DNA of 64,000 bases from Rhodothermales bacterium (GTDB lineage Bacteria; Bacteroidota; Rhodothermia; Rhodothermales; Bin80), in assembly GCA_965261255.1 (NCBI GenBank), contig CBDHCQ010000004.1, forward strand, positions 2,104,076 through 2,168,075, given 5' to 3'. The notes under the pieces were generated by a model. It did no database searches and was not told where the DNA came from. It saw nothing but the letters and a program-made list of their open reading frames with translations. The position numbers and the translations under genes are program-made. This document shows positions 53,303 through 59,498 of the stretch, one piece after another. Each line of letters starts with the position of its first letter. Position 1 is the first letter of the stretch.

Positions 53303-54349
53303 CTATAGCCCGAATGCCACGGAGACGACATGCACCGACCCAAGCAGGCCAAATTCCCAGAATGCGTACCCCAGATTGAGCGTATAGTCACTGAGGCCTA
53401 CATTGACACCGCTGCCCAGAGTAAATCCTTCCTCGTCGTAATTGAAGCGGTACCCGCCACGGATCGACAACAGGTCGCGAAAGGTGTACTCTGTCCCGAA
53501 GTTCACCTTCTCGGGGCCATCATTGGGGTGTACAAACTCTGCAGCTATCGTCAAGTGATGCAGACCGCCGGCATCGCCTTCAATTAGGTCATAGGCCGCA
53601 CCAAAGCTGAAATTGACCGGCATACGGATATCGGCTGGTTCGTACCCGATGCGCTCGTCAAAGGAAGCAATCTGCGTATCGGGACCGATGTTGCGACCTA
53701 CCATAGTGACGCGCAGACTTCGAATGCCCGTATGGAACACCGTGCCGATGTCCACTGCCCAGGCGCCGACAGTTGCGTCGTCCAGGGTTTCTGAAATGTA
53801 TTTGATGTTGACGCCGAAATGTAACTGCTCTGTCACCCTGCGGGCGTAGCTGACCCCCACGGCAAGGTCCCGAGCAGTCACGGTTCCCAGATTCGTAAGC
53901 ACCTCCGAGCGTCCGGTGGGAATGTCATCCAGTAGGATCGGCCTGTTTTCGGTACGCGGCATGTCGCCGTAGTCCAAAAACAGCAGGTTTACACCGATAA
54001 TGCCGATTCCCTCAAAGTTCCGGGCAGCAGCCGCGCTGTAGTAATTGATGTCGGCAATCCAGCGCACGTTTGTGAGTCCGATGTCAAGACCGGTTACATC
54101 CACCAGCGAGGCAGGATTAGTGAGCGACGATGCCGCATCGCCACGCCCCAGTGATGAGATGACTCCGCCCATTCCTGCTTGGCGTGCGTTGGTGGGCAGT
54201 TTAAGGAACTGGAATCCCGACTGCCCTACGCGGTTGAAGTCTGAAGGAGGAAGCCCAGTACCAGGGTCCGGGGTGAATTGAGCATACACGGGGGCCAGGC
54301 TGGCGGTCAAGAAAGCCAAGCAGGCCAATAGGAAAGTCAGTCGCTTCAT
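53303..54349 (-). CDS. PorV/PorQ-family outer-membrane beta-barrel protein
   Basis: After a signal peptide (MKRLTFLLACLAFLTASLAPVYAQ) comes GQSGFQFLKLPTNARQAGMGGV...NPASL, characteristic of the PorV/PorQ family. The start is set at MKRL. Confidence 0.6.
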   Translation of the reverse strand: MKRLTFLLACLAFLTASLAPVYAQFTPDPGTGLPPSDFNRVGQSGFQFLKLPTNARQAGMGGVISSLGRGDAASSLTNPASLVDVTGLDIGLTNVRWIADINYYSAAAARNFEGIGIIGVNLLFLDYGDMPRTENRPILLDDIPTGRSEVLTNLGTVTARDLAVGVSYARRVTEQLHFGVNIKYISETLDDATVGAWAVDIGTVFHTGIRSLRVTMVGRNIGPDTQIASFDERIGYEPADIRMPVNFSFGAAYDLIEGDAGGLHHLTIAAEFVHPNDGPEKVNFGTEYTFRDLLSIRGGYRFNYDEEGFTLGSGVNVGLSDYTLNLGYAFWEFGLLGSVHVVSVAFGL

Positions 54350-54390
54350 GAGATTACTCGGTAAGTGGGTGCGGGCAGGATTAATTACCA

Positions 54391-56417: not shown

Positions 56418-59400
56418 CTAGAAGGTCACCTCGAGTCCGAAATAAACCTGCCTTGGCAGGAGACCTTGGTTATACCAGTCCCATTCGCTTTCCTCCCCCG
56501 TAGTCGGATTGACCGGCAGTGTTCCTTGTTCGTGATAAGTCTCCAGCGCATTGCCGGTCAAGAAGTTGAGCCGCTTGGAATTGAACACATTGTGGACATC
56601 AATGCTGAATTTCATCTCTTCAACACCAGGCATACCAATCGCTTTGGAAAGGCGCAGATTGGTATTGTGGTGCGGCTTCCAGCGCCGGTTGTTGGGTTCG
56701 GTGGAGAAATCTCCCGGCGAATGGTAGGTATAGCGGTGTCCACTCGCGTATACGTAATAGGCATTGAGGCGCCAGCCGCCTAGCGGACGAAAGAAGCCGA
56801 GAGCAGGTCCAAATTCCGATGGCGAGAAGAGGTCCACGATAACCTTCACACTGGTGGTGGGATTCCACGTGTCGCTGTTAGTGCCCGACAGACCCTTATC
56901 CCTCAGGCTCACGCCGTGAAGCGTATGGGGCCGAACGGGATTGCCCTCTTCATCCGTGGTGAAGACCTGCCGGAAGCCATACTGCCCGGAGCGCACGAAG
57001 GACCTGTTGAAAATGATTCGTGCACGGGCATGCTCCAAGAACAGGGAATGCAGGGACAGCTCTAGGCCGCGTACATCTACGTACCCCCCGTTGGAAGTGA
57101 CGCGGCTACGGCCACCGCCCGGCGCAAACCCGAACGTGTTCGCCGCATCAGGGTGCACTTCCGTAGTTACCGACCCACCGACGCCGAAGAGGTTGTCGCC
57201 GATATTGTTGGGCGACTGCCGCACTCCCAGCGAGGTCAGATTCTTTCCATCACGGTAATAAACCGTGACATCCAGATTTGCAACGCCTGGAATATGTTGG
57301 TCAAATCCGAGTTCGTACTGGATGATCTTTTCAAAACTGAGGTCAGGATTGCCCGTGTTGGTGTTCGGGTGATAGAACACAAACACGTATTGCGCCGTGT
57401 CCGGCGAGGCATGCGGAGCACCGGCGGACGAGCCAAAGATGTGAAAGATGGTGGGCCCGCCACCAATGAGCTGCCAGGCCGGACGCTGGTTGAAGTGCCC
57501 GTAGGAAAAATGGAGCACCGTATTTTCGGTGATCGGGTGAGAAATACCGAAACGCGGTGAGAGGATAGCCTTGGTTTCGGTATCCACGCCGTGATCTTCA
57601 TCGGAATACGTGACAATTTCATCGGGCGCTACACCGACCATGTTGGTGATCAAGGCCGGATCGAGTATGGACGGGGCCACTTTCGTGTTGGCATTGAACG
57701 CATCTAGGCGCAGTCCAGCGTTGACCACCATACCATTGACCTCAATTTTTCCCTGCACGTACGCGGCGGCGTCCCAGGGATTGAAGTCTGGGCGGGTCGC
57801 ATGATTGGAGTAAATGGCACCGGGCATGGCGCCTGCCTTGAACCGCTTGGAGACGTACTGCGGCGAATACATCGCTCCAGTCTTAAGCTGGAAAAAACGG
57901 TTGATCTGATTGGTGTAAGCGGCCTTGAACAACCAGGCATCAGACTCCGCGGTGAGCTGAAAAATGCCGGGGTGACCCCGATGAAAAATCGGTGGCAGCA
58001 GAAATAGCGGATTGCCGGGAATCATGGTCTCGTCCCACTGCGTTCCGAATTCTTCGGAGTCTGGATCGTACGTGTCGCTGGCTTCCAGCTGCCTGAAGTT
58101 GTTGCGGTCCAAGTCCATTGATGTGTAGCTCGCCTGGACATCCAGGAAGGAAGCAGGATTGAATACGTGGGTCCATTTCAGCTGCCCGCTCTTGAGTCGC
58201 ATATATTCCGGAGGTGAAGGCAACTGAAAAATGTGTGACGTGCCGTACGGCCAATACTTGAAAGTGGAGTAGCCCGAATAGTAGAATGGCGCTGGTCCCC
58301 AGAGCCCAGCAATAAACGAATCCTCACTGGACCAGTAGCTCAGGCGGGGGCCCTCGGTATTGTTGAATCCTTGAACGAACCCCGACAATTCCAGCCGATT
58401 GTTGCGGGAGAGCTGATAGTTAAACTTTCCCTGATAATTCCAGTCTTTGGAATAGGTCAGATAGGCTGGAAATTCCGGGGCATCCTTGAGGTACTTGCCG
58501 GACAGCAAGAAGCTGAGTCTGTCAGTGATCGGTCCGTAGATGGTAGCTTCGGTTTCCCAGGTTGCGCGCTCGGTGTATTGCTGCATACGTCTTGACGGTT
58601 CCCCGAAAAGATCTCCAGAAATAAAGTTCATCCAAGCATCCAGTCGTTCCTGGGGTGTTCTGTTGACCCACTCGCCTCCACCGGTATTCTCCGTCCAGTA
58701 ATCCAGGGTAGCCATGGTTGCCCATTCGTAATTCTCCCTGCTATAGATATTTCGGCCCCAGTGGTACTTGCCAGCAGGCCGCAGACGCGCACGGACCGTT
58801 CCGTGCAGGCGATCCATCGCCGACTTGGTGACGATGTTGACGATGGCCCCCATTGCACGCCCGTATTCCGCATTCCAGCCCCCGGATAGCACTTCAAGCT
58901 CAGATATGGCCGTGGTGTTGACACCGGTCAGATTGCCGCCGGAAACATTATCTCGCAGGCTGAGCCCGTCGATGTAGTAATTGTCCTCCAGACCAAAGCC
59001 GCCGCGAATGCCTCCGTTAATATTAGTGGCTGCCTGGATTTCTATAGCCTCAAGGACTGTATTGGCCCAGCTGTTGGCCAATTCCTCGCCACTCATGCGC
59101 TCCTTGCTGCCGGTCAGGTCAACCTCCACGGGCGGACGCTCGGCCGTCACTACAAGTTCGCCGGTCTCGAGGACCGCCTCGGCCAGTTCGAAGTCCACCG
59201 GAGTTGTCTGATCTATGAATATCCGGGCGTCCGTCTTCGTGACAGTCGCAAATCCGAGGAGGGATGCCTGAACGCTATGCAGTCCAGGTGGTACTCGCAA
59301 TATGAAGTAGTTGCCGTCCACATCGGCGGACGCCCCCAGGCCCGTCCCGACCACAACAACATTGGCGCCCGGCAAGGGCTCGCCCGTGCTGGCATCGGTA

Positions 59401-59498
59401 ACTGTTCCTGCGATTTTGCCCGTTTGCGACTGGGCCAGTGCCACACCCTGACTGGCCAAAAGCAGGGCGATAAGGAGGGTAGGTAGTCGAGTAGGCAT
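56418..59498 (-). CDS. TonB-dependent receptor with an N-terminal CarboxypepD_reg domain
   Basis: After the signal peptide comes GKIAGTVTDASTGEPLPGANVVV...DGNYFILRVPPG. A plug region and a long barrel follow, ending ...YFGLEVTF with an aromatic C-terminus. Confidence 0.85.
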   Translation of the reverse strand: MPTRLPTLLIALLLASQGVALAQSQTGKIAGTVTDASTGEPLPGANVVVVGTGLGASADVDGNYFILRVPPGLHSVQASLLGFATVTKTDARIFIDQTTPVDFELAEAVLETGELVVTAERPPVEVDLTGSKERMSGEELANSWANTVLEAIEIQAATNINGGIRGGFGLEDNYYIDGLSLRDNVSGGNLTGVNTTAISELEVLSGGWNAEYGRAMGAIVNIVTKSAMDRLHGTVRARLRPAGKYHWGRNIYSRENYEWATMATLDYWTENTGGGEWVNRTPQERLDAWMNFISGDLFGEPSRRMQQYTERATWETEATIYGPITDRLSFLLSGKYLKDAPEFPAYLTYSKDWNYQGKFNYQLSRNNRLELSGFVQGFNNTEGPRLSYWSSEDSFIAGLWGPAPFYYSGYSTFKYWPYGTSHIFQLPSPPEYMRLKSGQLKWTHVFNPASFLDVQASYTSMDLDRNNFRQLEASDTYDPDSEEFGTQWDETMIPGNPLFLLPPIFHRGHPGIFQLTAESDAWLFKAAYTNQINRFFQLKTGAMYSPQYVSKRFKAGAMPGAIYSNHATRPDFNPWDAAAYVQGKIEVNGMVVNAGLRLDAFNANTKVAPSILDPALITNMVGVAPDEIVTYSDEDHGVDTETKAILSPRFGISHPITENTVLHFSYGHFNQRPAWQLIGGGPTIFHIFGSSAGAPHASPDTAQYVFVFYHPNTNTGNPDLSFEKIIQYELGFDQHIPGVANLDVTVYYRDGKNLTSLGVRQSPNNIGDNLFGVGGSVTTEVHPDAANTFGFAPGGGRSRVTSNGGYVDVRGLELSLHSLFLEHARARIIFNRSFVRSGQYGFRQVFTTDEEGNPVRPHTLHGVSLRDKGLSGTNSDTWNPTTSVKVIVDLFSPSEFGPALGFFRPLGGWRLNAYYVYASGHRYTYHSPGDFSTEPNNRRWKPHHNTNLRLSKAIGMPGVEEMKFSIDVHNVFNSKRLNFLTGNALETYHEQGTLPVNPTTGEESEWDWYNQGLLPRQVYFGLEVTF

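Follow-up and report, generated by a model that had tools for sequence, protein, structure and literature searches.

A cassette of TonB-dependent transporter, sorting-domain protein and PorV-like barrel as a candidate SusD-independent uptake module of FCB-group bacteria

Background

Glycan foraging in Bacteroidota is conventionally recognised by SusC/SusD pairs, and the tools that predict polysaccharide utilisation loci depend on SusD. Here we analyse a stretch of 64,000 nucleotides (nt) from a Rhodothermales bacterium (assembly GCA_965261255.1, contig CBDHCQ010000004.1, positions 2,104,076 to 2,168,075), referred to below as the window. The window contains a cassette of three genes, hereafter the triad. 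In order, these encode a TonB-dependent-receptor-like outer membrane (OM) barrel (the transporter), a secreted protein of 658 amino acids (aa) whose tail resembles a type IX secretion system (T9SS) C-terminal domain (CTD) (the middle protein), and an OM barrel of the PorV/PorQ family (the PorV-like barrel). We favour, with modest confidence, the view that the triad serves bacteria of the FCB group as an OM uptake module with no need of a SusD lipoprotein, in which the CTD protein would be anchored by the barrel and would serve the transporter.

The closest described systems outside SusC/SusD are pairs of a CTD-bearing protein and an OM barrel. In two pairs, PorU-PorV and PorZ-PorQ, of the Porphyromonas gingivalis attachment complex, an uncleaved type-A-like CTD is held by a barrel of the PorV/PorQ family. 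The CTDs of PorU and PorZ remain uncleaved, and they are anchored at the cell surface by PorV and PorQ, respectively (PMC5562754; PMC11285876). Ordinary type-A CTDs are poorly conserved (PMC11285876), and all type-A CTDs are recognised by the general PorV shuttle (PMC12618676). Cryo-electron microscopy of the cargo-bound translocon showed that one conserved CTD lysine is the sole conserved contact with PorV (PMC10994853). The loops of PorV wrap the CTD and touch this lysine. Meanwhile, type-B CTD cargo has genetically linked cognate barrels of the PorP/SprF family, which act as shuttle or anchor (PMC9143113; PMC12618676). In these pairs (SprB-SprF, PG1035-PorP and the Fjoh pairs) the cargo needs its own barrel for secretion and is anchored by it non-covalently, and the CTD carries both the secretion and the targeting signal.

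Results and discussion

The gene order of the triad is invariant across phyla

The triad consists of three consecutive minus-strand open reading frames (ORFs) in the ORF list of the window (Table 1). The gap between the transporter gene and the middle gene is 50 nt, and the spacing between the middle gene and the barrel gene depends on the start of the latter. Its first ATG gives a protein of 363 aa and a 4-nt overlap, while a start at Met16 (position 54349) gives 348 aa and a gap of 41 nt. The second is likely the actual start: 348 aa is the length of most homologues, and Met16 opens a clean signal peptide, MKRLTFLLACLAFLTASLAPVYAQ. The initial annotation of this DNA had described three closely spaced minus-strand genes, and the ORF coordinates and gaps bear this out. 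It had identified the products as a CarboxypepD_reg-type TonB-dependent receptor of 1,026 aa, a secreted protein of no recognised family with an Fn3-like module and a type-A sorting-like C-terminal β-sandwich, and a 348-aa PorV/PorQ barrel as opposed to a generic OmpA/FadL barrel, with no SusD/RagB gene following the receptor. The searches and models reported below agree with each of these assignments.

A scan of species-representative genomes yielded 160 confirmed relatives, from which 79 loci were kept. Four more were added through a look-up of exact proteins, giving 83 loci whose collinearity was judged by tblastn of the three window proteins. Wherever the contig reaches, the genes for the transporter, a protein of ~660 aa and the PorV-like barrel follow one another in the same order and on the same strand (83/83 loci). 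Because order and strand recur in all of these loci, the arrangement is far beyond chance. Identity ranges from 34 to 98%, with 70-98% among metagenome-assembled genomes (MAGs) of Rhodothermales and 34-53% in KSB1, Calditrichota, Latescibacterota and Ignavibacteriota, the last including a Melioribacter MAG. Many of the triad-bearing Rhodothermales MAGs derive from sponges and a coral. Even in this truncated sample some single MAGs carry 2 to 4 or more copies of the triad, also as tandem duplicates (locus L003), and two independently chosen members of the barrel subfamily, P0109 and P0151, lie within triads as well. The initial annotation had named co-conservation of the three genes as a test of its proposal. 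The triad is indeed kept across several phyla, where it travels with carbohydrate-active enzymes and sulfatases.

The tail of the middle protein is not confined to one family. It sits at the extreme C-terminus of otherwise different secreted proteins (P0073, 1000 aa; P0074, 1025 aa; P0075, 705 aa), of which the first two resemble the window protein in nothing but the tail and a portion of the FN3-like region, and the third is a very distant relative at most. Such CTD proteins with a different head (1000-1025 aa) are encoded in loci L090 (1966-8745), L092 (498-8389) and L093 (238-4370). In L090/L091 and L092 their genes again lie between one for a CarboxypepD_reg/Plug/TonB barrel upstream and one for a PorV-like barrel downstream. 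The contig of L093 is cut upstream, and the PorV-like barrel after the CTD gene is visible. L092 holds two CTD-protein/barrel pairs in tandem, and a distant KSB1 variant (L087) is made of a transporter, two paralogous middle genes, a barrel, a second transporter and a third middle gene. Since CTD proteins with unrelated heads keep the same flanking genes, the invariant unit is the transporter, the triad-type CTD and the PorV-like barrel. This linkage, whatever the N-terminus, is in our view the strongest argument that tail and barrel would be functional partners and that both would serve the transporter.

Two irregular occurrences were observed among the relatives. The transporter gene of L089 (4037-6938) is split by gene calling into two ORFs of 354 and 632 aa, which could reflect a frameshift, a pseudogene or an assembly error. 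Triad genes were also found in MAGs labelled Actinomycetota and Deltaproteobacteria (L026, JAACEJ010000067.1; protein P0106). These are most likely mis-binned contigs of the FCB group, not real occurrences outside it.

The middle protein ends in a divergent type-A-like sorting domain

The 658-aa protein matched no Pfam family (none at E<=0.1) and no NCBIfam family, except that its final 110 residues weakly matched the C-terminal part of the PorU sortase model. A word-indexed search recovered about 70 full-length homologues, and an exhaustive profile search placed the family at 394, 2606 and 6094 clusters (50% identity) at E<=1e-30, 1e-10 and 1e-3, respectively. The AlphaFold model (pLDDT 86.9, pTM 0.84) has four parts: a β-sandwich with a helix, a Pro-rich (PPPT) linker, an FN3-like sandwich and a final β-sandwich. 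The FN3-like part is recognised by its strand pattern, with no Pfam fn3 match, and the final sandwich is the CTD. Full-length Foldseek searches returned weak and partial matches only (FN3 pairs, glycoside hydrolase (GH) β-sandwiches and phage tail-tip proteins).

The CTD (~105 aa) is the best-conserved part of the protein, with a mean column identity of 71% across phyla in the family alignment (A3). Mean identity to distant homologues falls from 63% in the CTD to 47% in the FN3-like domain and 37% in the N-terminal domain. Such conservation would be expected if the CTD contacts a conserved partner. Lys653, in the final CTD strand, is invariant in 70 sequences and parallels the conserved lysine by which type-A cargo contacts PorV.

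We scanned 26 tails of the family singly against Pfam and NCBIfam. Among the NCBIfam models, the PorU C-terminus was matched by 23 of the 26 tails (best 5.5e-8), TIGR04183 by 15 (best 8.3e-6) and PorZ by four, with a few weak unrelated matches besides the T9SS models. All Pfam matches were sub-threshold: Por_Secre_tail in 9/26 and CHU_C in 11/26, plus one stray Aconitase match. The type-B model CHU_C (PF13585) reached 1.6e-3 at best, always below 27 bits, and type-B TIGR04131 was absent from the NCBIfam matches of the 26 tails. Compared by hhalign with four canonical type-A CTDs taken from neighbouring genes, the triad tail gave a probability of 95.9% (E 5.8e-9). The alignment pairs the PNPF, IYN/IYT and GVY motifs, with insertions in the triad tail. 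The CTD profile found no match among PDB sequences at E<=10. Collectively, these comparisons point to a genuine CTD of a divergent, type-A-like form that comes nearest to the retained CTDs of PorU and PorZ. The scoring of the C-terminus as a CTD, which the initial annotation had predicted, thus holds at the level of the family and by hhalign, but not for the window sequence alone, which scored 18.7 bits against TIGR04183 (cut-off 23) and 16.5 bits against Por_Secre_tail PF18962 (cut-off 27).

The protein begins with a signal-peptidase-I signal (aa 1-25), with A-Q cleavage sites in which Gln26 is nearly invariant. Neither a functional nor a conserved lipobox cysteine was found in the family, and what lipobox-like strings there are, few in number, fall within the signal peptide's hydrophobic core. 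Because the A-Q sites are conserved and those strings fall within the core, the protein is predicted to be Sec-exported and non-lipidated. Without a functional lipobox, another anchor is needed. A SusD-like identity of the middle protein was ruled out by the absence of a SusD match, the all-β model (one long helix aside) and the lack of a lipobox.

The N-terminal domain, modelled as a large β-sandwich spanning aa 27-365 with a long helix (376-407) after it, is presumed to be the part that binds a ligand or caps the transporter. Homologue alignments revealed invariant motifs in it (KNYNF, WSLPKYDDF, YDDTS and TGDRGDPGNI). By Foldseek it showed weak, partial similarity to the N-terminal β-sandwich of GH116, GH94, GH149 and GH161 enzymes (TMq 0.25-0.29), which is a non-catalytic domain in these enzymes.

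These features also bear on a different interpretation, in which the middle protein represents a new family of enzymes, secreted or surface-bound, such as a lyase or hydrolase that acts on the polymer before uptake, and is only displayed by barrel and CTD. The many invariant Asp, Glu, Arg, Trp and Tyr residues, set in fixed motifs across loci with different accessory enzymes, would suit an enzyme, as would the resemblance to GH enzymes. However, the resembled domains are not the catalytic ones and the TM-scores are low, and no catalytic family was matched in Pfam or NCBIfam. Moreover, the slot directly after the transporter and the fixed 1:1:1 gene ratio follow the logic of SusC/SusD, and unrelated N-terminal domains can fill the same slot. 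We regard a new enzyme family as rather improbable.

A PorV/PorQ-family barrel accompanies the CTD

The third protein matched the PorV/PorQ family model NF033709 with 179.3 bits (cut-off 90), aa 59-362 of the 363-aa form aligning to positions 2-325 of 326. Its scores against the equivalog models were below cut-off for both PorQ (NF033711, 125.6 vs 220) and PorV (NF033710, 57.8 vs 250). By these scores it forms a paralogous branch of its own within the PorV/PorQ family. A profile built from 56 homologues had a single significant solved relative in the PDB, PorV of Flavobacterium johnsoniae (6h3i_F, 3.2e-7); phmmer of the protein itself against the PDB gave no match, and PorV was found by the profile alone. 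Identity to PorV is 16%. The AlphaFold model (pLDDT 83) was closest by Foldseek to PorV in the T9SS translocon structures (8gl6_F and 6h3i_F, TM 0.66-0.67), followed by FadL, TodX and TbuX at about 0.5. The match to PorP_SprF reached only 16 bits.

The FadL relationship underlies another explanation, namely that the barrel acts as a channel of the FadL type through which small products, hydrophobic or amphipathic, would pass, independent of the CTD, and that the three genes serve three separate OM functions of a catabolic operon. PorV itself belongs to the FadL superfamily, FadL-type proteins are the next-best folds, and the N-terminal hatch of the barrel carries an NPA motif that is common to FadL. 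Yet PorV ranks above FadL-type channels by HMM, PDB-profile and fold searches alike, by which a generic FadL or OmpA barrel was ruled out, and the barrel co-occurs with the triad CTD whatever the head or the neighbours, which is unexpected for a substrate channel. We consider this explanation very improbable.

Chains of BAM complexes of Bacteroidota (9hjm_F, 9n2d_B, 9hiv_F) were also among the Foldseek neighbours of the barrel (TM 0.32-0.48). PorV-like partners may be a wider theme in the OM machines of Bacteroidota.

The triad can be compared with the described CTD-barrel pairs. As in PorU-PorV and PorZ-PorQ, a CTD that scores best against the PorU and PorZ C-termini goes with a barrel that scores to the PorV/PorQ family. 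The triad barrel differs in staying below the PorV and PorQ equivalog cut-offs, and the retention of the CTD in the triad is a step that we infer. The triad is not an attachment complex, and its surface protein lacks the character both of a sortase and of a β-propeller carrier of lipopolysaccharide (LPS). Its CTD-barrel pair is linked to a TonB-dependent transporter and is present in many copies per genome. With the type-B pairs the triad shares the arrangement of a CTD-protein gene followed by the gene for its own OM barrel. It differs from them in that the barrel is of the PorV/PorQ family, the CTD is nearer to type A despite weak CHU_C matches, and a transporter gene is also linked. In structure and in sequence alike, the triad barrel is matched best by PorV of F. 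johnsoniae (6H3I/8GL6); PorV is, however, a single-copy, highly abundant, general carrier, whereas the triad barrel is a locus-specific paralogue, one per cargo gene. If a type-A-like tail were served by a PorV paralogue of its own locus, the rule of a general PorV (PMC12618676) would have an exception.

In Ignavibacteriota, and in several lineages besides, the barrel gene is immediately followed by one whose product bears a canonical Por_Secre_tail that passes the Pfam cut-off. These cargo proteins include BD-FAE esterases of ~1060-1110 aa, CBM96 proteins and β-helix proteins. In these Ignavibacteriota loci and the other non-Rhodothermales loci with canonical cargo, the cassette is effectively one of four genes. 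The presence of such cargo indicates that the loci depend on type IX secretion in those lineages. Cultured Rhodothermales and Melioribacter have T9SS-CTD enzymes (PMC6539836; PMC3534657). No canonical CTD cargo was found within the window.

A conventional T9SS explanation has to be weighed at this point. The middle protein could be ordinary T9SS cargo and the barrel a transient dedicated shuttle, with the CTD cleaved by PorU, the protein released or attached to LPS, and the adjacency of the transporter due to co-regulation. The triad CTD is homologous to cleavable type-A CTDs, PorV is normally a shuttle (PMC5562754; PMC10994853), some subsets of cargo are known to have cognate shuttles (PMC12618676), and the same loci also contain genes for canonical CTD enzymes. 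If the shuttle acted catalytically, however, there would be no need for each cargo gene to have its own copy at every locus and for every paralogue. The triad CTD is also most similar to the retained CTDs of PorU and PorZ, its tail is far more conserved than ordinary type-A CTDs (PMC11285876), and a swap of the N-terminal domain leaves the gene order relative to the transporter unchanged. A transient shuttle thus appears unlikely, though the least so of the alternatives considered here.

The transporter lies outside the SusC subfamily

The transporter starts with a signal peptide and a CarboxypepD_reg domain (aa 29-105, nt 59184-59414; Pfam 6e-17). A TonB-box-like ELVVTAE, read from the sequence, follows this domain, and then come a plug and a large barrel. 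In Pfam, OMP_b-brl_3 was matched with 30.8 bits (cut-off 27), and Plug scored 18.4 bits, under its cut-off of 23.9. Many TonB receptor models of NCBIfam gave partial, sub-threshold matches. Orthologues in L086, L087 and L090 had significant Plug and TonB_dep_Rec_b-barrel matches. The SusC model TIGR04056 scored 60.4 bits against a cut-off of 368 and covered aa 28-152 only, and the only solved relative by sequence, RagA (6sli_B), aligned to aa 28-157 only. Membership of SusC/RagA was ruled out, as the N-terminal domain alone matches TIGR04056 and RagA. Because of the domain matches of the orthologues and this N-terminal-only match, we assign the protein, as probable, to the TonB-dependent type of transporter, with a SusC/RagA-style N-terminal CarboxypepD_reg domain but outside the SusC subfamily.

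The resemblance to SusC/SusD and RagA/RagB lies in the arrangement. A CarboxypepD_reg TonB barrel is followed by the gene for an extracytoplasmic partner of ~600 aa, in a context of glycoside hydrolases, sulfatases, inner-membrane permeases and regulators, and a genome has several paralogous copies of the arrangement. The triad differs from SusC/SusD in that its transporter misses the SusC model, and its partner is all-β, without a SusD or tetratricopeptide repeat fold, a SusD Pfam match or a lipid anchor. A third gene, for the PorV-like barrel, is obligatory. The triad is also found in Rhodothermales, Ignavibacteriota, Latescibacterota, Calditrichota and KSB1, and not in Bacteroidia. SusD/RagB was not matched in any large ORF of the window or in any called neighbour of the related loci examined.

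A model for SusD-independent capture

We propose that the middle protein would be exported by Sec and would then cross the OM through the T9SS. Its CTD would stay uncleaved and be held by the extracellular loops of the co-encoded PorV-like barrel, in the manner of PorU-PorV and PorZ-PorQ. This non-covalent tether would place the middle protein at the cell surface, 1:1, beside the transporter, and the FN3-like spacer would let the N-terminal β-sandwich reach over or next to it. That β-sandwich would capture the substrate or cap the transporter and pass the substrate to the TonB-dependent barrel. The middle protein would thus take the role that lipid-anchored SusD and surface glycan-binding proteins have in Bacteroidia. 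In the window locus, the flanking GH116 enzyme, the two sulfatases and the 919-aa and DUF6786 proteins would process the glycan, and the MFS permease would import the products. This functional model is plausible and well motivated; anchoring, substrate capture and the replacement of SusD are the steps that we infer. The initial annotation had likewise suggested a capture module with the CTD protein as the glycan-binding partner in place of SusD. Its reading is supported in part, by the CTD-type C-terminus, the PorV/PorQ assignment of the barrel and the co-conservation of the three genes.

Several observations weigh against the model. The CTD of the window protein itself stays under curated thresholds, and core T9SS genes (gldK/L/M/N, sprA/sov, porU and porV) were not found within the window. 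The N-terminal domain matched no recognised carbohydrate-binding family in Pfam or NCBIfam and resembles non-catalytic GH and phosphorylase β-sandwiches weakly. Its acidic and aromatic motifs are invariant across loci with differing enzymes, so that a structural or catalytic role fits them at least as well as that of a substrate-specific binder. Finally, some triads adjoin peptidases and amidases or ADP-ribosylglycohydrolases and a sugar kinase. These neighbours suggest that the substrate is not always a glycan and that the module is not tied to one substrate class; the label "glycan-binding" may be too narrow.

A bolder extension of the model, which we advance tentatively and rate somewhat short of an even chance, is that the triad represents a third class of T9SS signal-and-shuttle pair. 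In this class, a PorV-family barrel of its own would dock interchangeable CTD proteins onto a TonB-dependent transporter, providing SusD-independent capture in FCB phyla other than Bacteroidia. The three-part complex may be an evolutionary alternative to SusC/SusD, or even its forerunner. No description of the cassette was found in open-access full texts and bioRxiv, including the Melioribacter and Caldithrix genome papers. All of its parts belong to known superfamilies, and the triad looks like an undescribed alternative to SusC/SusD.

If the triad works as an uptake module, much of the polysaccharide-utilisation capacity of Rhodothermales (some of which are symbionts of sponges and corals), Ignavibacteriota, Latescibacterota, Calditrichota and KSB1 is invisible to SusD-based tools. 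It would also connect type IX secretion with TonB-dependent import for the first time.

Genomic context of the triad and other features of the window

Across the related loci, the triad has GH2, GH3 and GH116 enzymes, sulfatases, SASA esterases, CBM96 proteins, MFS and SSF permeases, and LacI and GntR regulators as neighbours. In the window, the genes downstream of the triad (43663..53297) are all co-oriented with it, with gaps of ~5-410 nt or 4-nt overlaps, and likely belong to the same utilisation locus. The whole run from the GH116 gene to the MFS permease gene lies on one strand. A relative that is 83% identical (L001) keeps the same gene set downstream of its triad and also has the GH116 gene. 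The features are listed in Table 1.

Table 1 Features of the triad locus and of related loci (window positions, except in the last row)
Feature	Position	Strand	Evidence or remark
MFS permease	43663-44985	minus	Pfam
DUF6786 protein	45397-46632	minus	Pfam 7e-160
919-aa protein	46690-49449	minus	sole match sub-threshold: D-glucuronyl C5-epimerase C-terminus
Sulfatase	49504-50997	minus	Pfam
201-aa ankyrin protein	50994-51599	minus	Pfam
Sulfatase	51603-53297	minus	Pfam; 5 nt after the barrel gene
PorV/PorQ-family OM β-barrel (FadL superfamily), 363/348 aa	53303..54394	minus	NF033709
658-aa secreted protein, unannotated family	54391..56367	minus	ORF; no Pfam/NCBIfam family
Divergent type-A-like T9SS CTD (putative), aa 553-658	54394..54711	minus	VIPNPFRQ ... 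PGVYIYHIESHV ... GKFLIVK; invariant Lys653
FN3-like β-sandwich, aa ~433-545	54733..55071	minus	strand pattern in model; tandem FN3 among best Foldseek matches
N-terminal β-sandwich domain, aa 27-410	55138..56289	minus	homologue alignments, AlphaFold, Foldseek
TonB-dependent-receptor-like OM barrel, 1026 aa	56418..59498	minus	ORF; Pfam domains
Promoter-like TTGACA-17-TAATAT	59632..59660	minus	consensus match only, 10/12 positions; in the 659-nt gap upstream of the transporter gene
GH116-family glycoside hydrolase	60158..62761	minus	upstream of triad; Glyco_hydr_116N 2.5e-60, GH116 catalytic region 1e-41 (Pfam)
Canonical CTD cargo after the barrel, in loci L039, L046, L048, L049, L054, L056-L058, L063, L065, L069-L072, L075, L079	~nt 9100-12500 of the locus		coordinates differ in the shorter loci L046, L048, L058, L079

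In a promoter and terminator scan of the region, the count of promoter-like sites was not above the shuffled expectation, so the site upstream of the transporter gene is weak evidence for a promoter. An Rfam scan of the window gave no match.

The ankyrin gene overlaps the downstream sulfatase gene by 4 nt and is separated from the upstream one by 3 nt. No signal peptide is evident in its product, and L001 has a gene for a 203-aa protein in the same position. The DUF6786 and 919-aa proteins are both kept downstream of the triad in L001, and a DUF6785 protein, related to DUF6786, comes after the triad in L088. These proteins are candidate enzymes of triad loci.

Elsewhere in the window, a second barrel with CarboxypepD_reg and OMP_b-brl_3 (955 aa, 12638-15505, plus strand) is followed by neither a middle-protein gene nor a PorV-like gene, the next gene being PD40/TolB-like and on the opposite strand. 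A protein of 2079 aa (35246-41485, minus strand) is made almost entirely of ankyrin repeats (>20 Pfam Ank matches), and its gene sits in a stretch with a GC content of 0.58-0.59, compared with ~0.50 elsewhere.

Sponge and coral MAGs (RHO1_bin_46, SB0661_bin_24 and Plut_88870) are most closely related to the window, so that the source organism is probably a host-associated member of Rhodothermales. Based on the set of GH116 enzyme, two sulfatases, ankyrin, 919-aa and DUF6786 proteins and MFS permease, which recurs in L001, the cargo of the window locus is probably a sulfated glycan of host or algal origin, a substrate that would plausibly suit host-associated Rhodothermales.

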